DNA of 27,665 nucleotides from a virus (lineage: Duplodnaviria > Caudoviricetes). Shown piece after piece: positions 4,992 to 26,214 of the stretch. The stretch covers positions 1-27,665 of IMG/VR virus record IMGVR_UViG_3300023296_000894; one strand, given 5' to 3'. The translations under genes and the position numbers were made by a program. Below the pieces are notes generated by a model. That model made no database searches. It was not told the origin of the DNA and saw only the letters and a list, made by a program, of their open reading frames with translations. The stretch's first letter is position 1. Each line of letters begins with the position of its first letter.

Positions 4992-5225
4992 TTACCAGTT
5001 CTGAAAATCTTTGATTCTTTGCTTTTTAAGGCGGCGTGTGGCAGCTTCTTTTGCTTTACGGCGCTTTGTGCCTTTGGATTCGTAGAACTCTCTTGAACGG
5101 AGTTCTTGCAGCATTCCGTCATCAGCGAGGCGCTTTTTTAGTTTGCGAAGCGCCTTAGCAATGTCATTGTTGTATACATCAACTTTGGTTCCTTTAGAAA
5201 ATTGTTCTTTAGCGTGTTTGCTCAT
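4992..5225 (-). CDS. rpsU: 30S ribosomal protein bS21
   Basis: VDVYNNDIAKALRKLKKRL...LQELRSREFYESKGTKRRKAKEAATRR. Start at 5225 after a GGAGG RBS. Confidence 0.88.
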   Translation of the reverse strand: MSKHAKEQFSKGTKVDVYNNDIAKALRKLKKRLADDGMLQELRSREFYESKGTKRRKAKEAATRRLKKQRIKDFQNW

Positions 5226-5601
5226 TTGTTCCTCCAATGATATTTTCAAGCAAAATAAAATCATAAATTCTATTCTTGCTTATTAAATTATACGGCGTTG
5301 TGCCGTCGTTTGTCAAGTAAAAAGTGTTTGGTTGCGCAATAAAATGTGATAGAAACATTCTCACCTCAGGCCCACAATTATCAACATCAATAAGTGTAAC
5401 ATCAACTTTTTTTATTAAGTTGATCAGCCATTCAATGTTATCGAATGCAGTTTCATACAGATATAGGTTCAAATGAATCTGTGTTTCGCTTAATATATTG
5501 TTGAGTAACTGTTTTTTATCTGTGGTTGGACATACAACAAGTATGCTGTATGCATCGTTGTTTAATATGTCTGGCGGTGTAATTATTGTAACATCATTCA
5601 T
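5209..5601 (-). CDS. Hypothetical protein
   Basis: 130-aa ORF overlapping both neighbours in operon fashion. Confidence 0.7.
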   Translation of the reverse strand: MNDVTIITPPDILNNDAYSILVVCPTTDKKQLLNNILSETQIHLNLYLYETAFDNIEWLINLIKKVDVTLIDVDNCGPEVRMFLSHFIAQPNTFYLTNDGTTPYNLISKNRIYDFILLENIIGGTNEQTR

Positions 5602-8264: not shown

Positions 8265-9101
8265 TTAAAGCCATTTAGGTTTCTTGATTTTCTTAAACGG
8301 TTTGGCAATAGCATCACCAGCTTTTTTACCAGTATCTACTACTTTATCAGCTGCTTTAGTTGTTTCTTTAGCCACCGTATTTGCTGCTTTAGTTGTTTCT
8401 TTCGCAGTTTCATTTGCTACATTAACTATTTCTTTCTGAGCTGGCTTTGTATCTACACTAACACTAAGGTCAACATCAACTCCAGCCAGCAAAGCAACTT
8501 CACCACTTACTCCTACAGTAGCAACACCGTTATCCATAGTTGCGCCGCCGCCAACTTCAGCACCTGCTTGAACACCGATACTTACACCACCAGTTGCAGC
8601 ACCACCATTGCCACTGCTGTCATAAGCACTCGATGTATTGTCAACACCAACACTTGCTCCTGCTGTAGCACCAGCATGACCTGCTGCACCATCTTTACCG
8701 ATTTGCGCCGATGCACCGGCACTTGCTCCTGCTTCTGCATGAACTGCGGTTTCGTTCTTAACTGTCACATCACCGACTTGTTGACTTACACTTGCGCTTG
8801 CTTCTGCACTTGCGCCAACTTCTGCGCCCGCTTCAGCATAAGCATTGCCGCCACTTACACCCGCTTGTGCTCCTGCACTTGCATGTGCTTCTGCGCTTGC
8901 TCCTGCTTCTACAGTAGTATCACCGTAGGCTGCACTTGTGCCAGCTTCTGCACTTACGCCGGCCTCTGCACTTGCTGCGGCAGTTGTAGCAGTTACTTCT
9001 GTGCCTGCACTTGCATGTGCTTCAGCGCTGGCGTGTGCTTCAACGTCGACGCCGCCTACAGTTGTTTCTGCACTTGTACTTGCTTCTACTTTATCATTCA
9101 T
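8265..9101 (-). CDS. Ala/Gly-rich repetitive protein
   Basis: 278 aa with recurring ASAEAHASAG / GASAEA units and a twice-repeated AKETTKAA near the C-terminus. Confidence 0.75.
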   Translation of the reverse strand: MNDKVEASTSAETTVGGVDVEAHASAEAHASAGTEVTATTAAASAEAGVSAEAGTSAAYGDTTVEAGASAEAHASAGAQAGVSGGNAYAEAGAEVGASAEASASVSQQVGDVTVKNETAVHAEAGASAGASAQIGKDGAAGHAGATAGASVGVDNTSSAYDSSGNGGAATGGVSIGVQAGAEVGGGATMDNGVATVGVSGEVALLAGVDVDLSVSVDTKPAQKEIVNVANETAKETTKAANTVAKETTKAADKVVDTGKKAGDAIAKPFKKIKKPKWL

Positions 9102-10945: not shown

Positions 10946-11172
10946 CCGCCGACATAAGTTTCTGTTTTTGGTCTATAAAAGTTTTTTTGATTGTGAAGCC
11001 GACCGAGGAGATCTTGTATCTCCTTTACCTCACGATCCGCAAGCTGCTGATTTTCAATGTCAGCAGCAGTTAATTTGTATTCAGTAACTGTGCGCTGTCT
11101 ATCACGTAGTGCATGTTCGATCATTTCGATGTCACGCACTGTTAGTTCAAATTCTGTATTGGGTTTTGTCAT
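10942..11172 (-). CDS. Hypothetical protein
   Basis: 76-aa ORF with ATGA overlaps on both sides. Confidence 0.7.
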   Translation of the reverse strand: MTKPNTEFELTVRDIEMIEHALRDRQRTVTEYKLTAADIENQQLADREVKEIQDLLGRLHNQKNFYRPKTETYVGG

Positions 11173-11756
11173 AGTGTGTCTGCTATTTTGTGATTAACTT
11201 CTGCGTGGCCTTGCTCGTCTGCTCTCACTGCTATTACAACATCACGCAATGTTGCGTCATCTGCTAGATTATAATAGTCACGAGCAATGTTGGGTGCAGG
11301 AATATTTTCTGTTCTTCCTGCATCAATCTCTTCCAGGTAGTGAGTGTAGCTGATCACTGCTTGATCTTCAAAGTAGCCTACCATTCTGTGTGCTGTGGTT
11401 GGGAAGAATACGTAAAGAATAAAATAAAAGTGCCAAAACACAAACTGTGCAAATAGAATCAACAGTCTTTCAAAGCGACTTGGCTTTGCGATCTCAACAA
11501 AGATCATAAGATGCATACGCTCGTTTTCTGCTTCTTCTAGCAGCGTTTTGATCCAGCCACGTTCGTCTGGTGCTATGTTGCGCAGGCTGCGTAGGTGCTG
11601 CCACATACCTGCTACCATGCCTGGAACACCTGCCACAGTCTCTAGAACAACTGCACGATGTCCATAGCGTTTGGCGAAGAATGTGTCCGCGAACCAACGA
11701 AAAGTCATTGTTAAAAAATAAGCAACTCTATCACTGAAGTCTTTGGGCTGTCTCAT
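11169..11756 (-). CDS. aox: Alternative oxidase (ubiquinol oxidase, di-iron)
   Basis: LETVAGVPGMV, HLRSLR, LLEEAENERMHL, HRMVGYFEDQAVISYT, PAPNIARDYY, VRADEQGH. Confidence 0.93.
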   Translation of the reverse strand: MRQPKDFSDRVAYFLTMTFRWFADTFFAKRYGHRAVVLETVAGVPGMVAGMWQHLRSLRNIAPDERGWIKTLLEEAENERMHLMIFVEIAKPSRFERLLILFAQFVFWHFYFILYVFFPTTAHRMVGYFEDQAVISYTHYLEEIDAGRTENIPAPNIARDYYNLADDATLRDVVIAVRADEQGHAEVNHKIADTL

Positions 11757-12172: not shown

Positions 12173-12329
12173 GCATCGTTGCTGCGCTAAAGTGTAGCAG
12201 GTACTTACAGTTTCAGAGTGGTGCGTTTTGTATCCCACTATTTGTAACCCAATGTCCTAGTCCCAGTTTAACGGGCACATTCTCTTACCCAGCTGATAAA
12301 ACTATGTTAAACCTTTTTGCCGTCTGTAA

Positions 12330-12506
12330 GTGTAAGTTGATTCTGTTACTAGGTTCAACTTACAAAACCCTCACATACCCTTAGGCTGCTATTGCCATCT
12401 CTGGCGCTCTATTTGCGTTTGCATTTAGAATGTTTGACTGAATAACGTAGGTCAACACGAATACCTAAAAATAAGTTTTTAACGCCCGTCGATCCCTTTC
12501 GCCCCC
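12330..12506 (-). ncRNA. ssrA: Two-piece (permuted) tmRNA, coding piece; tag ANANRAPEMAIAA* at 12381-12422
   Basis: Starts GGGGGCGAAAGGGATCGAC; resume context TAAAT-GCA; tag ends in AA; 3' hairpin GTAAGTTGA...TAACAGAA-TCAACTTAC. The 3' end is approximate. Confidence 0.9.
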
Positions 12507-12538
12507 GGAGTAAAACACACATTTATATATGTGCTTTA

Positions 12539-12612
12539 TGGTGGAGGCGTTGGCCTTCGAAAGCCAAGTCCGGTACATCAATCACCTATTCGTGATTAAA
12601 CTATAAGACAGT
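12539..12612 (-). ncRNA. ssrA: Two-piece tmRNA, acceptor piece
   Basis: GGAC-TTGGC-TTTCGAAG-GCCAA-CGCCTCC-ACCA. CGCCTCC pairs with GGGGGCG including the G3:U70 Ala determinant, and CACGAATA pairs with TATTCGTG of the coding piece. The 5' end is approximate. Confidence 0.85.
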
Positions 12613-12613
12613 A

Positions 12614-13366
12614 TTATTTCCTATAGTATTCCATTCTACGACCTTTATACCAACCGTTTGGTATCTCGCCGCTCGTGTATTTATTTTCTTTTGTTGTTGG
12701 ATTATAGATCCAAAAATTTCCATAAACTCCAGACTTTCTCTTTAGCCTATCTCTTGCTTCTGTAATCCTTATCCATCCTTCTTGTATATTATATACGGAA
12801 AAAACTCGTTTGTCAAGATTGAATCTCGAAGTATCTGTAAGATTTTCTGGAACACACCAGCATTTGTCTTTCATACTATTATTTTCTTTTTGATATTTAG
12901 AAACTTTTTTGTATGATTCCTTATAGACATCAGGGTTGTCTCTAATCTTCCTTTCTTTAGATTCGTTAGCTTTTTTACTAAGATTTACAACTTCAGGGTC
13001 GCCCTTCTTAAATGAAGTTGATCGAAGTCCACCTCCTTTTTTAGCACCTTTTAATCTTGCTGCTTGGGCAGCAGGCGCCTTATTCCAAGTACTCCATCCT
13101 CCGTCGCCTTCTTCTATTTTAAGATTAGCCCATTCGTTAGATTCGACAATATTAAAACGGTTGCTGTATTCTATGCCCTTTTCTTTAATAACATCTTTAC
13201 TGTCTGTTATTATTAATATTTCTGTAGAGATATCAGCACCGTGTTTTTTAAGATGATTTGTCCATCGTGTACCACTGCCTTTATAAGTATATGGGTCAGC
13301 AGATGTCTGACCTAGGTATTTTAATCCTGTTTGATTGTGTGTTTTTACATATAAATAATATGTCAT
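12614..13366 (-). CDS. GIY-YIG (Seg-like) homing endonuclease
   Basis: YYLYVKTHNQTGLKYLGQT..DPYTYKGSGTRW..HLKKHG...WANLKIEEGDGG; C-terminal IPNGWYKGR DNA-binding-type motif. Confidence 0.85.
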   Translation of the reverse strand: MTYYLYVKTHNQTGLKYLGQTSADPYTYKGSGTRWTNHLKKHGADISTEILIITDSKDVIKEKGIEYSNRFNIVESNEWANLKIEEGDGGWSTWNKAPAAQAARLKGAKKGGGLRSTSFKKGDPEVVNLSKKANESKERKIRDNPDVYKESYKKVSKYQKENNSMKDKCWCVPENLTDTSRFNLDKRVFSVYNIQEGWIRITEARDRLKRKSGVYGNFWIYNPTTKENKYTSGEIPNGWYKGRRMEYYRK

Positions 13367-13434
13367 TGCTGGAAATCTCCTTTAGTATTTTTAGAGTAGT
13401 TGGGACTGCCATCCGCGAACTACATTATTATTTA
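13367..13434 (-). promoter_or_regulatory. TAAATA late promoter plus conserved structured leader (copy 1)
   Basis: TAAATA..TGTAGTTCGCGGATGGCAGTCCCAACTACTCTA..AGGAG..CAGCAATG; a homologue lies at 18676-18747. Confidence 0.75.
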
Positions 13435-13456
13435 TCTAAAAGAGTTATTTTTGCCC

Positions 13457-13508
13457 GGTACCGCCCCCAGGTCCAGAATGTGTCCACGTTGTTTCAACGT
13501 TTACAAGT
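13457..13508 (-). pseudogene. Truncated second tmRNA acceptor piece
   Basis: GGACCTGGGGGCGGTACC has the alphaproteobacterial-type GGCGGTA T-loop but is not followed by an acceptor strand or CCA; lies directly after a promoter. Confidence 0.7.
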
Positions 13509-13509
13509 T

Positions 13510-13539
13510 TATTTATACACTCTTTTTATGATTTGTCAA
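13510..13539 (-). promoter_or_regulatory. Promoter of the tmRNA locus (TTGACA plus TATAAATA)
   Basis: TTGACA-16 nt-TATAAATA could act as a sigma70 promoter, a T4-type late promoter, or both. Confidence 0.7.
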
Positions 13540-13745
13540 CTATTTCGATCTGCTCTGGTGTTTCCGCGATCTAGATACCACGGATCCAAATTCAACTGTT
13601 GAGCAACTTCTGCCGCTTGTTCTACACTGTTACAGCTGGTGACCATGTCGCCTTTGCGGCCGCCTGTGCGGATTCGCCACAGTGTCTTACCCAGTGTGGT
13701 AACTTCTTCGTATACCTTAAAATCGTTTCTTACTTTAGTAACCAT
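13536..13745 (-). CDS. Hypothetical protein
   Basis: 69-aa ORF, AAGGA RBS. Confidence 0.7.
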   Translation of the reverse strand: MVTKVRNDFKVYEEVTTLGKTLWRIRTGGRKGDMVTSCNSVEQAAEVAQQLNLDPWYLDRGNTRADRNS

Positions 13746-18663: not shown

Positions 18664-18675
18664 CTGATAAAAGGC

Positions 18676-18747
18676 TAAATAAAAGTGTAGTTCACGGACT
18701 TCGTGGTGGTCGTCCCAACTACTCTATAACTAAGTAGGAGTTACAGC
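18676..18747 (+). promoter_or_regulatory. TAAATA late promoter plus conserved structured leader (copy 2)
   Basis: TAAATA..TGTAGTTCACGGAC-N12-GTCCCAACTACTCTA..AGGAG..CAGCATG. Confidence 0.75.
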
Positions 18748-19542
18748 ATGAATATTTATATACAGATTATAAGTGATCTCTCACAAAAGAACAAGTATTT
18801 TTCTTGGTGGCAGTCTATGATCGAACGTGGTATACAAAGAGCCAGCACTCGAGAAGAAGCCAAATCTCTGCTAGGATATGTAGAAGGACACCACATAGTG
18901 CCTGTTAGTTTTAACCTCGGTGGCAAAAACGATAGCGATAACTTTGTTTATCTTACTGCAAAAGAGCATATTATGATACATAGACTAATGTGTAAATTTC
19001 TCACTAATGAATATAGAATAAAATCATTGAGAGCATTTCATTGCATGTGCTTTAAAGATAACGGTGGTCAAAACAAAAGATTAGCATCGCTACACCAGTT
19101 AGCAAAAGCAAGAGAGGCAGTATCTGAATCGAACAAAGGCAAACGAGGCCCAATCGGTGTTCCAGCCTGGTTTACAGAATCAACCGATTTTGATATTTTT
19201 TGCGATCGATTAGGAGAATTGGTAGCAGAAGGATTAAGTGATCCGCAAATAGGTAAAAAGTATGACGTAAGTGCTACCGCTATTTTTAATTGGAGAAATA
19301 AACTAAATCTCAGAAGACGTCGATGGCAACTGAGAGATAAAAAATGGTTACACAATCACTATGTGAATAAAAAATTGTCTGCAGAGAAAATTGCGTCTCT
19401 AATAGGTTGCAGCGGAACAGCCGTTCAACAATATTTGATTAAATTTAATATACCTATTAGAGACGCAAACGAACGCCAAAAATCAAGAACTGATCGGAAG
19501 ATACTCACCAGTAATGTTGTGACGAACTGCCAACAAGGTTAG
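18748..19542 (+). CDS. HNH homing endonuclease (MobE-like) with two C-terminal HTH motifs
   Basis: YVEGHHIVPVS...GG.NDSDNFVYLTAKEHIMIHRLM; LSDPQIGKKYDVSATAIFNW; LSAEKIASLIGCSGTAVQQYL. The only convincing plus-strand gene. Confidence 0.9.
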   Translation: MNIYIQIISDLSQKNKYFSWWQSMIERGIQRASTREEAKSLLGYVEGHHIVPVSFNLGGKNDSDNFVYLTAKEHIMIHRLMCKFLTNEYRIKSLRAFHCMCFKDNGGQNKRLASLHQLAKAREAVSESNKGKRGPIGVPAWFTESTDFDIFCDRLGELVAEGLSDPQIGKKYDVSATAIFNWRNKLNLRRRRWQLRDKKWLHNHYVNKKLSAEKIASLIGCSGTAVQQYLIKFNIPIRDANERQKSRTDRKILTSNVVTNCQQG

Positions 19543-22916: not shown

Positions 22917-23167
22917 TACAATGCCCATCCAGTTCCATTATAACCGGTTTCTTCTAAATAAGTAGACAGTTCTTTGTATCCGCCTATAGCTGATCCATTT
23001 ACAATGATCTGCGGATAAGTTTTAGCTTCGGGGAAACGTTCTAACAATTCTTCTCTAGTAAATTCGTTTCCTAGGCTGTAGTAACTATAATTCAGATGCC
23101 TTGATTCACACAGTGATCGTGCTGCATCACAGTATCCACAACTGGGTTTCCCCCAAATTTCTATCAT
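22916..23167 (-). CDS. nrdC: Glutaredoxin
   Basis: CGYC active site, KTYPQI, IGGY; lies in the nrd cluster. Confidence 0.92.
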   Translation of the reverse strand: MIEIWGKPSCGYCDAARSLCESRHLNYSYYSLGNEFTREELLERFPEAKTYPQIIVNGSAIGGYKELSTYLEETGYNGTGWAL

Positions 23168-24297
23168 AGACTGAATCCTTTTTGAATTATTTCTAATTTC
23201 CAGCCCGTTGTTTTTCCTTTTTTAGGAATAGGCCAGTTTTTTTGTATTTGCATTTTTAGTGTACTCCAACTTAGATTGTTTTTCTTACAAAATTCTACTG
23301 CTTCGCCGCCGCATAAAATATGTTCAACGCTTTGAGGTGATGTTAATTTATATGTGTAACTGTTTTTGTTACCTTTGCCAACTCGTAATTTTGCCTTGGC
23401 TCCTATTAAGTCCTTTGTACTTTGCTTCTGTGTTTTGCCGTACATAGGGTTTCCAGAACCAGTATTTAATTTACTAAACTTCTTGCGTGTTTCGTCGCTG
23501 TGACGTTTAGGCCCATAGCCTCCACGTTCTTTCTGCAGGCGCGATCGCAATTCTCGTTGTTGCTGTGCTTTTTCAACACCATAAATTTCTTCGTATGTTT
23601 TGCCTCTGTGATTAGGAGGATGTGCATCTATACAGATATTAGATAATATTCCGTCTTTTTCATATCCCTTTCTGCCATAACGCTTAATCAACTCTGATTC
23701 TATATTATACGCTAAATCTTCATCAATGATATTTTCAGCAATATACTCAATTAATGGTTCATTACCAGATGCACGTATGCTAGCAATCTTATTTTCTTTA
23801 TAAACATTCCTAGTTTCAGGAACGTCCCATAAGTGTGTTTTGGCTCGTCTACCTTTGCCTTTTCCGATATAAAAGGGTTGACTGTTTCTTGGGTCTACTA
23901 ATTGATATACATAATACACGCTATTTTTCTCCTGCTGTATATATTTAGCAAGAGACTGAGAATAACAGTTAGGTATTGAATAATCCTCGGTTTGATTAGA
24001 ACTAGCAGCAAAGATAATGTGTTCTCTGTGATCTTTATATGGGGTTATGTCTACTAGTTTGTCGTCTTTCCATATACTGTGCCGTATGGCTTGTATAACG
24101 CCAAACCCTTTTAAAAAATAATAGCCAATTACTTTCTTTCCGCCATAGATAGTGGTATGTGTTTTAACATTATTATGACAGTTGTTGTAATCGTATGCTG
24201 AGTGTGCGTTAACAACTACAGCGCCAATCCAGTTGCAATCAAGAGACTTTGCCATAGAACGCATGTCATCTTCAACTGCAACTGGATTGTTCCACAT
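23164..24297 (-). CDS. GIY-YIG/NUMOD3 homing endonuclease fused in frame to an N-terminal domain of about 125 aa; probable internal start at 23919
   Basis: YYVYQLVDPRNSQPFYIGKGKGRRAKTHL...E..LIKRYGR...GILSN; KRHSDETRKKFS, GNPMYGK. Confidence 0.85.
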   Translation of the reverse strand: MWNNPVAVEDDMRSMAKSLDCNWIGAVVVNAHSAYDYNNCHNNVKTHTTIYGGKKVIGYYFLKGFGVIQAIRHSIWKDDKLVDITPYKDHREHIIFAASSNQTEDYSIPNCYSQSLAKYIQQEKNSVYYVYQLVDPRNSQPFYIGKGKGRRAKTHLWDVPETRNVYKENKIASIRASGNEPLIEYIAENIIDEDLAYNIESELIKRYGRKGYEKDGILSNICIDAHPPNHRGKTYEEIYGVEKAQQQRELRSRLQKERGGYGPKRHSDETRKKFSKLNTGSGNPMYGKTQKQSTKDLIGAKAKLRVGKGNKNSYTYKLTSPQSVEHILCGGEAVEFCKKNNLSWSTLKMQIQKNWPIPKKGKTTGWKLEIIQKGFSL

Positions 24298-25455: not shown

Positions 25456-25528
25456 ATTTTAACACACTGCTCACAGTGTGTCAACATTTATATAGTGCAA
25501 CTATAACATGTCCCAGAGGACATGTCAA
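25456..25528 (-). promoter_or_regulatory. Two tandem sigma70-like promoters upstream of nrdB, each with a palindromic spacer
   Basis: TTGACA(25528)-17-TATAGT and TTGACA(25484)-17-TAAAAT. Confidence 0.75.
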
Positions 25529-26214
25529 GTATTAAATGTGTATGACCAGTCTTTCCATTTTTCTTTTTTTGATAAACATCTAGACCTTACCATTTTTGTT
25601 GAACTGAAACCATAAAAATTTACAACTTCAGTGACTGACTGAAATAATCCGTCAGGTGTATTTACTTTCTTCTTTCCATTGGTAGAGAGTGGATCTCCTA
25701 CATCCGGTGCCTTGTCTGTGTAAGACCACAAATAGCCATGAGCATTTGTAAACTTACCATCACAAGTATATTTAATATTTGAAGGAGATTTTGCTCCTAC
25801 TGCATCGCCTGCTTCTTGTAAACTACAAAATTTTGCGATTAAGTTTCCCCTTAAGTCAAATTGAAATACTTGTTTACGAAGATTCTTATCAGCCCATTCG
25901 TTCCAGCCTTTTCTAACATTAGTAAAATCCGTGCAGTGGCCGCCAGTTGCTGAATCCTTGAGATTATAATAGGTTCTATCATTTTTAACATTCATTGACT
26001 TTAGATAAAACTCCTCTCTTGTTAACACATCTTCTTTATTAATCACATATTCTAGTATAGTTCTACTGAAAGAGCTTGCTCCATATTTACTATATGCTTT
26101 CTTAAATGCTGTGCCGCTACCAGTATACGAATCGTTGTCTAGTCCAATGTGGCTTCCAATATACATTTTTCCATTTACAGTGTTAGTCCATTTATAAATA
26201 AATCCACTATACAT
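25525..26214 (-). CDS. GIY-YIG (Seg-like) homing endonuclease with a NUMOD1 domain, between nrdA and nrdB
   Basis: GFIYKWTNTVNGKMYIGSH...YTGSG..F..AY.KYG...E...YYNL; VFQFDLRGNLIAKFCSLQEA...SNI...C.GK...AHGYLWSY. Confidence 0.9.
   Translation of the reverse strand: MYSGFIYKWTNTVNGKMYIGSHIGLDNDSYTGSGTAFKKAYSKYGASSFSRTILEYVINKEDVLTREEFYLKSMNVKNDRTYYNLKDSATGGHCTDFTNVRKGWNEWADKNLRKQVFQFDLRGNLIAKFCSLQEAGDAVGAKSPSNIKYTCDGKFTNAHGYLWSYTDKAPDVGDPLSTNGKKKVNTPDGLFQSVTEVVNFYGFSSTKMVRSRCLSKKEKWKDWSYTFNT

Follow-up and report, generated by a model that had tools for sequence, protein, structure and literature searches.

We think it probable that the middle part of this phage's own tmRNA gene has given way to a mobile cassette of about 1 kb, which consists of a gene for a nuclease with a GIY-YIG fold and a foreign tRNA-like half and likely spreads by homing. 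The anatomy of the locus, its empty alleles, the junctions, the recurrence and the mobility are established by sequence comparison, and by analogy with a known nuclease we lean towards the T-arm as the targeting determinant. The window, by which the whole analysed stretch of 27,665 nt is meant, is a partial genome of a large phage (8% complete according to CheckV) and contains nrdA/nrdB as well as genes for glutaredoxin, Hsp20, ClpS, rpS21, alternative oxidase and several nucleases. The stretch is present in 20 sequencing runs that are labelled as salt lake or lake water metagenome; 11 of them may be where this DNA comes from, and none of the listed runs is an RNA run. As the nuclease protein is identical in 12 of the 15 loci compared, and as positions 12183-13715 are spanned without a joint by single contigs in three of the four sequencing runs examined, the locus is not an assembly artefact. 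Its order on the minus strand is a promoter, a CCA-less stump of alphaproteobacterial type, a late-type promoter with a hairpin, an ORF of 250 aa, and a permuted tmRNA that is complete and whose T-loop has 8 nt. The individual features are the following:

13512 to 13539, minus strand: promoter of the resident tmRNA, TTGACA (13539-13534), 16 nt, TATAAA (13517-13512); 11/12 consensus in the sequence, recipient-derived
13453 to 13510, minus strand: stump of the resident acceptor piece with 5' pairing strands, GGAC at 13474, T-arm and GGCGGTA loop (13465-13459), no CCA
13429 to 13452, minus strand: A/T-rich spacer and late-type promoter motif TAAATA (13434-13429), from the sequence
13377 to 13423, minus strand: leader hairpin (13423-13396) and ribosome-binding site (13382-13377)
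12614 to 13366, minus strand: ORF of the 250-aa Seg-like nuclease, with a predicted GIY-YIG domain (residues 1-90) and a C-terminal domain
12788 to 12816, minus strand: sigma70 consensus TTGACA-17-TATAAT (12/12) within the nuclease ORF, from which the replacement tmRNA may be transcribed
12623 to 12628, minus strand: TACTAT, resembling a -10 hexamer and placed 7 nt ahead of where the new acceptor has its first helix strand; second candidate start signal
12539 to 12615, minus strand: replacement acceptor piece with the T-arm TTGGC-TTTCGAAG-GCCAA, ending in CGCCTCCACCA (Rfam, ARAGORN)
12507 to 12538, minus strand: intervening spacer of the permuted gene, 32 nt
12460 to 12506, minus strand: cassette-derived start of the coding piece with the 5' acceptor strand GGGGGCG, a GG-type D-loop mimic and strands that pair with the new acceptor
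12335 to 12459, minus strand: remaining coding piece with a recipient-type pseudoknot (12459-12434), the tag frame (12422-12381, ANANRAPEMAIAA*) and the 3' tail

The first-pass annotation had placed the parts that it named correctly, as could be confirmed from the sequence, ARAGORN and Rfam, and it was also right about the upstream acceptor piece without CCA, the complete downstream piece with its 8-nt loop, and the spacer of exactly 32 nt. It had further described the stump as breaking off in the middle of the T-arm, which is incorrect, because the hairpin closes with four of five stem pairs and is followed by one acceptor base. The window contains a single copy of the stump motif, and none of 100 shuffles contains one. 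The promoter at 13512..13539 overlaps a T4-late-like TATAAATA, and intact alleles have their promoter in the equivalent position.

Empty alleles of the locus are found in nuclease-free relatives. In 119 of the 120 loci with the T-arm motif of the stump (120 of about 640 loci), this motif continues into the acceptor strand, and the remaining one is the window's own stump. In the nuclease-free locus L406, the same three upstream genes and the same downstream gene surround one intact acceptor. L604, L615 and L579 possess a single GGCGGTA acceptor between a 5' sequence close to that of the stump and the pseudoknot of the window, and the nuclease-free L604 and L615 match the window to the left of the T-loop and to the right of the pseudoknot start. 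A search with the pseudoknot resulted in 46 loci, 24 of them distinct, with 17 GGCRGTR loops, five other 7-nt loops and one locus without an acceptor in the available DNA; among these 24 distinct loci, the group of the window is the only nuclease carrier. Apart from one compensatory pair, the pseudoknot is common to the 17 distinct GGCRGTR alleles. The comparison with endonuclease-free relatives, which the first-pass annotation had proposed, thus gave a single intact GGCRGTA acceptor and no double acceptor arrangement.

When 277 regions were compared segment by segment, the stump and the pseudoknot matched GGCRGTA alleles best, with L010, L043 and L064 as best matches of the 5' part of the stump, and the new acceptor and its partner strand matched best the sister locus L134, which also has the nuclease. 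The best matches of tag and tail were mixed. As the segment-wise best matches switch from recipient to cassette and back to recipient, the cassette can be placed at ~13456-12460, with a length of ~1 kb. That a nuclease cassette displaced the original acceptor and supplies the partner of the coding piece had already been proposed and agrees with these matches. The replaced part goes beyond the acceptor alone, however, as by these matches it also comprises the spacer, the D-loop mimic and those strands of the coding piece that pair with the acceptor. The recipient contributed the promoter, the stump and the pseudoknot. The right junction is found at about 12460, at the pseudoknot start, and the left junction likely lies within the T-loop core at 13470-13457. 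In the T-stem of the stump, the 5' strand is as in L010-type alleles and the 3' strand as in L406. This chimeric-looking stem fits a crossover in the loop, but two point changes could also explain it.

Judged by its predicted pairing and its matches, the rebuilt tmRNA is structurally coherent. Among the Rfam models for permuted two-piece tmRNAs (RF04321/RF01849), tmRNA_permuted is matched with 92.3 bits at a cut-off of 47 and alpha_tmRNA with 82.2 bits at a cut-off of 50, and ARAGORN calls a permuted tmRNA with the tag ANANRAPEMAIAA, in which the acceptor piece precedes the coding piece, in keeping with the original identification. The acceptor stem GGGGGCG/CGCCTCC forms 7/7 pairs with G3-U70, A73 and an ACCA end, and the tag frame ends in small hydrophobic residues. 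In tRNAs, the D-loop and the T-loop are linked by the 18-55 contact. Counted from the end of the D-loop mimic, the ninth base is A in 98 of 100 GGCRGTR alleles and G in 87 of 89 others, and we infer that this covarying base belongs to the 18-55 contact. In the window it is G, in agreement with the new T-loop.

Two helices keep every pair between the window and L134, with one double compensatory change in each, in a comparison of two sequences only. The coding piece pairs with the downstream acceptor, as had been noted before, and its duplex has -20.7 kcal/mol with the new acceptor versus -13.1 with the stump; this energy difference alone was used, as the z-scores against shuffles are weak for all alleles including the intact ones. 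The helix TATTCGTG/CACGAATA that had been quoted for this pairing is probably not the native one. Its strands are complementary and duplex folding by energy alone favours it, yet it has a C-A mismatch in the sister locus L134 and would use up a strand of the pseudoknot. MFE folding of the precursor led to a non-native arrangement.

The first-pass annotation had concluded that the acceptor must be processed from a transcript that also encodes the nuclease. As the ORF itself contains a sigma70 consensus of 12/12, such an excision from the nuclease mRNA is possible but not required, and the replacement tmRNA is likely transcribed from this internal promoter. The minus strand of the window has 11 sigma70 sites of at least 11/12, and the plus strand has none. 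L301, whose gene has lost its 5' part, retains a promoter of the 12816-12788 type at 11/12 in the same place; L242, L176 and L173 have other internal promoter sites, and several relatives have none. A -10-like hexamer is situated 6-8 nt before the helix in seven of ten related loci analysed, with a spacing as in intact alleles, and TACTAT may partly be due to Tyr-Tyr codons. The new acceptor begins, with its first helix strand, in an overlap with the stop codon of the nuclease.

It is hardly conceivable that the upstream piece acquires the CCA end of the downstream one through a group I intron or another kind of splicing. Group I introns do use four subsites in the T-loop of tmRNAs, and 4% of them come with a homing endonuclease (PMC11915505). 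Rfam, however, gave no intron family and no match to a ribozyme core at E <= 1, and only ~90 nt precede the ORF and ~40 nt follow it, the latter being the tmRNA itself. The downstream acceptor is complete alone, and the coding piece possesses the GG D-loop and the pairing strands of this new acceptor. An integrase island at ssrA was also considered and rejected, because the only ORF of the cassette has a GIY-YIG fold and there is no upstream duplicate of the CCA end.

The layout recurs at nine distinct loci besides the window. A blind search that ignored the nuclease, and which asked for the T-arm followed by TAAATA 16-30 nt further on, resulted in 42 matches, of which 20 were distinct: ten intact alleles, one unrelated locus (L417) and nine stumps. 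All of these nine stumps precede a GIY-YIG gene, one of which is broken. With L323 added, ten stump loci are available, and in all ten the T-loop of the downstream acceptor differs from GGCRGTR, with 6, 7, 8 or 9 nt. The T-stem is fully paired in nine of the ten stumps, and six stop at one and the same base, directly before CACCA. TAAATA follows all ten stumps, which was built into the search for most of them. The stump loop was also set by the search pattern, and L133, L134, L264 and L323, which were first found via the protein, share it. L242 has the nuclease and a new acceptor without a recognisable stump, L301 is without its 5' part, and in L237 the contig ends within the locus.

Several comparisons point to transfer with co-conversion, namely that of L416 with L448, the mosaic gene of the window, and a low divergence in two of four strains. 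L416 and L448 share a block of 770 nt with 17 mismatches and differ in the 5' part of the stump and in the tag, which indicates one cassette in two recipients. Between L122 and the window there are 0 differences in 1160 positions over 12381-13540, and 18/205 and 41/482 in neighbouring genes; L131 shows 1 difference in the cassette region versus 16/205 in a neighbouring gene. L124 and L132 give a weaker contrast and are near-identical elsewhere too, so that the contrast is clear in only two of the four distinct strains. Three runs contain a further contig with matches to nothing but the T-arm motif and a downstream element, at a distance of ~460 nt, which is the spacing of an empty allele and suggests a candidate recipient in the same habitat. 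Broken or reduced copies of the nuclease are found in L134, L301, L137 and L184. Only tails are left in L137 (E 3e-12) and L184 (E 6e-6), with 0.075 as the best value among 83 controls. For L178, L196 and L458, inspection by eye hints at nuclease tails, those of L178 and L196 being not significant.

The occurrence of the nuclease was compared between T-loop classes in allele sets that had been chosen by T-arm pattern, from which 24 short-flank and six non-permuted loci (GGCRGTA) and 26 non-permuted loci (8-nt loop) were dropped. According to profiles and Pfam together, a nuclease is encoded directly upstream in 0 of 62 distinct GGCRGTA alleles and in 8 of 22 alleles with an 8-nt loop (p 7e-6; as the loci are related, Fisher p-values overstate independence). 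Profiles alone give 5 of 22, to which Pfam adds L163 (NUMOD3) and a weak, sub-cut-off LEM-3 GIY-YIG in L170 and L173; Pfam found no homing family in the control ORFs (40 of 51 submitted). Among alleles with a 6-nt loop, 0 of 38 have the nuclease in the profile search (120 of about 220 loci), and no homing family was detected by Pfam in their upstream ORFs (27 of 34 submitted), which rules out that every non-GGCRGTA loop marks a nuclease. T-loops of 6 and 8 nt are indeed common in phage tmRNAs without an adjoining nuclease, and nuclease-free T-loop variants occur on the same backbone (L523 and L474, also L576 and L591). A loop switch can therefore have other causes, and as nuclease-free alleles also vary in the T-loop, the new T-arm represents standing variation that was captured by the nuclease. 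It is thus a different natural allele and no recoded replacement of the resident gene, as had been assumed initially.

The same nuclease-free variants speak for an alternative in which the T-loop swap was selected for the phage, either as an escape from a host nuclease that attacks tRNA or tmRNA or because of a better fit to SmpB or alanyl-tRNA synthetase, with the nuclease as a passenger or cutting elsewhere nearby. A host defence that cuts phage tRNAs has been described (PMC13096335), and in T4 the cleavage site of a free-standing nuclease is often hundreds to thousands of bases away from the nuclease gene (PMC2988022). We nevertheless think that this explanation is unlikely, because plain allele exchange leaves no stump, whereas the nuclease comes after nine of nine blind-found stumps, its gene is placed inside the broken T-arm/acceptor junction, and the shared end base is found in six of ten stumps. 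A homing cassette remains the preferred reading.

The GIY-YIG assignment is predicted from the fold and from relatives, which agree with what the first-pass annotation had called the gene; the protein of the window itself has no Pfam, PHROG or PDB-sequence match. An AlphaFold model from 19 sequences has a mean pLDDT of 77 and a pTM of 0.37, with a pLDDT of 86-95 over residues 1-80. In Foldseek, the three PDB entries closest to this predicted model are all the I-TevI catalytic domain, with an rmsd of 2.6-2.8 and a TM of 0.63-0.69 of target (0.69 for the best one, at a weak E of 6e-3). In BFVD (viral), 170 structure matches were obtained at E <= 0.001, many of them named Seg-like or GIY-YIG, the Atlas assigns the protein to SegE/SegB clusters (0.96), and its alignment to a SegE_GIY-YIG protein from Pfam has a probability of 98.8%. 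In 118 aligned sequences, Y6, Y17, G19, Y28-G30-S31-G32 and N81 are invariant or nearly so. Gly64 aligns with the catalytic, metal-binding Glu in the third helix of SegE-type relatives, and Glu85, which is invariant in the 118 sequences, may be a candidate stand-in for it. The SegE-type members L430 and L264 retain the usual Glu. These sequences point to a large unannotated GIY-YIG subfamily without the usual catalytic Glu.

The Gly at the usual position of the catalytic Glu is also an argument for the view that the cassette homed in the past, and that the nuclease is now dead or a DNA-binding repressor that is kept as the holder of the tmRNA promoter and 5' end. The broken or reduced copies in L134, L301, L137 and L184 and the promoter within the ORF fit this view, and T4 provides a precedent for retention via embedded promoters (PMC2988022). 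But the Gly and the invariant Glu85 are common to the 118 aligned proteins in many contexts, and strains with differing flanks all have the same unbroken ORF, which makes a dead nuclease quite improbable compared with a homing cassette.

The N-terminal domain belongs to a large family that occurs in many contexts, whereas the C-terminal domain tracks the tmRNA: in seven of seven distinct loci with at least 80 bits (among 396 loci), an acceptor follows 39-57 nt behind the gene. The pattern of the C-terminal domain gave one match in the genome collection. C-termini of related cassettes are joined to three kinds of N-terminal domain, and a single common target is therefore an assumption. In isolated phages, weak N-terminal matches were obtained in six Vibrio phage records, and no DNA match to the tmRNA.

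T4 SegB recognises a T-arm motif of tRNA and cuts after CCAR (PMC2330249). In a similar manner, the nuclease would in a co-infection bind the GGCRGTA T-arm of an empty allele and cut near the CCA end, and repair would then copy the cassette, with the T-arm as left-hand and the pseudoknot region as right-hand homology. Self-immunity would result from the splitting of the site, since the stump has the T-arm without CCA and the new acceptor has the CCA with another T-loop. As stumps keep an intact T-arm, this immunity presupposes that the T-arm alone is not cut. A change of the T-loop needs the matching base in the D-loop, and the cassette must therefore include the start of the coding piece. If the replacement RNA starts within the gene of the nuclease and shares the stop codon with it, the two would be coupled. 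We propose that nuclease tails survive decay because the promoter and the 5' end of the replacement RNA are situated in the nuclease gene. Embedded promoters could favour retention and autorepression at the stump would be possible, both with precedents in T4 (PMC2988022).

The alphaproteobacterial type of the stump could also suggest that the main target is the ssrA of the host, with the nuclease as a takeover tool that spares the phage tmRNA. Alphaproteobacterial hosts carry the GGCRGTA loop, but a DNA cut leaves the existing stable tmRNA in place, and the layout of stump and replacement indicates phage-to-phage gene conversion. As seen with Melnitz, an alpha-type phage tmRNA need not imply an alphaproteobacterial host (PMC9004378), and we consider host ssrA as the main target to be very improbable.

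Phage homing cassettes of this kind could form a phage-wide, splicing-free class that swaps the tRNA-like module. An arms race between the nucleases and the GGCRGTA T-arm would then drive the 6-, 8- and 9-nt loops and the D-loop switch, many nuclease-free variants would be scars of earlier invasions, and the stump would act as an uncuttable operator through which the nuclease represses its own late promoter, as I-TevI does; we put this forward only tentatively. It would be a testable reason for the high T-loop variability in phage tmRNAs. Empty allele, stump and replacement provide a natural set of test substrates, and the natural chimeras probe the contact of T-loop and D-loop (A18-G55 vs G18-U55). 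That invaders repair the phage tmRNA each time implies that it is apparently worth keeping.

Related hybrid genes are known from fungal mitochondria, where free-standing endonuclease ORFs bring a foreign piece of the target gene, for example in Allomyces atp6. These differ from the cassette of the window in that protein genes of organelles are concerned and the 3' end is replaced. The WHO elements from yeasts have been called a rare third category of homing element (bioRxiv 10.64898/2026.08.13.744650). As in the Torulaspora WHO elements, a nuclease is combined with an allelic piece of the target, and the gene is restored without splicing while a displaced fragment is left (PMC7282813). Both also have in common that the resident allele is expected to resist its own nuclease, and a diversity of target alleles (PMC7282813; bioRxiv 10.64898/2026.08.13.744650). 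WHO elements, however, combine LAGLIDADG with a zinc finger, replace the 3' half of the eukaryotic FBA1 and occur in clusters of up to 9, whereas the cassette described here has a GIY-YIG nuclease, replaces an internal segment of the phage RNA gene ssrA and leaves its stump upstream, and no clusters were seen.

Group I introns in the tmRNA T-loop are selfish as well, some have a homing endonuclease and they also concern the T-arm region, but they splice out and restore the same T-loop, whereas the cassette replaces the T-arm and has no ribozyme core (PMC11915505). The forms of tmRNA listed there are standard, intron and permuted (PMC11915505). The tmRNA of Melnitz is likewise an alpha-type permuted ssrA from aquatic T4-like phages, and 53 cases of two-piece tmRNAs were counted; nuclease or stump are not mentioned in the parts of that article drawn on here (PMC9004378). 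The portions considered of PMC4131195 and PMC10448857 deal with phage tmRNAs or phage homing nucleases, and a link between tmRNA and nuclease is absent from them. In the open-licence literature, with supplements outside the scope, no description of such a cassette was found, and the supplementary tables of PMC11915505 or PMC9004378 might mention one.

The cassette works like SegB with respect to the type of target and like WHO elements with respect to layout, and it is a member of neither the WHO elements nor the tmRNA introns. Phages have reached a WHO-like logic independently, and here the gene concerned encodes a structured RNA and each of the two junctions can be mapped to within a few bases. 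In common with SegB are the Seg-like GIY-YIG fold, the tRNA-type locus, the late-type promoter with a leader hairpin and the transcription unit with structured RNAs (PMC2330249, PMC2988022). The gene of SegB is flanked by tRNA genes that are intact, and SegB depends on being weakly expressed, as its own genome contains sites for it (PMC2330249, PMC2988022). In contrast, the nuclease of the window interrupts the tmRNA gene in which it is located and supplies a substitute half that has a different T-loop, and it is without the catalytic Glu at the usual place. In a fold of the short leader, the hairpin of the window leaves the ribosome-binding site uncovered, and a related leader is also found 5' of the ORF at window position 18748 and of the nucleases of L135, L323 and L242.

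Nuclease genes of other types are also found upstream of phage tmRNA acceptors, namely LEM-3-like GIY-YIG genes (weak Pfam matches that fall short of the cut-off) at the compared loci L170 and L173 and a NUMOD3 gene at L163. The acceptor stumps at L170 and L176 are shorter and end immediately past GGAC, which, together with the different nuclease types, suggests independent invasions. At L512, a further compared locus, a nuclease tail (47.6 bits) is located upstream of the acceptor, and the decayed nuclease gene there looks as if it had been interrupted by an unrelated small ORF. T-loops of the same 8-nt type as in the replacement acceptor are also present in 26 distinct phage tmRNAs that were not called permuted (a subset of loci L139-L222), and a profile search upstream of these 26 detected no nuclease.

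One leader is common to unrelated putative nuclease genes, occurring twice in the window and at the compared loci L135, L242 and L323. In each case TAAATA is followed by a hairpin that is closed by the same stem and then by the ribosome-binding site. An Rfam search gave no match to this leader, and it may represent a mobile regulatory module. These two copies and further features of the window are:

18670-18748, plus strand: shared leader
13434-13367, minus strand: shared leader
25525-26214 and 23164-24297: two more GIY-YIG-like genes, either side of nrdB
4985-2578, minus strand: IMPDH/GMP-reductase gene, split into two ORFs with intein halves
27640-26283, minus strand: NrdA C-terminal ORF
484-1702, 4992-5264 and 11169-11756: auxiliary genes (heme oxygenase, bilin reductase, ribosomal protein S21, alternative oxidase, ClpS)
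8265-9101, minus strand: long repetitive ORF, rich in Ala/Gly/Ser
12207-12244: conserved element of 38-41 nt downstream of the tmRNA

The intein halves of the IMPDH/GMP-reductase ORFs are weak matches to Hint_2 and Intein_splicing, and a Vsr-like NUMOD3 nuclease gene sits between the two ORFs, which is the split-intein layout known as a “fractured gene”. The NrdA C-terminal ORF, which is preceded by an ORF matching phrog_5104, opens with a stretch that appears intein-C-like by eye, and this region is probably a second fractured gene. Among the auxiliary genes, that for heme oxygenase adjoins the one for the bilin reductase, which is ferredoxin-dependent. The conserved element is also present at L133, a nuclease-bearing stump locus, and recurs on another contig in three sequencing runs.
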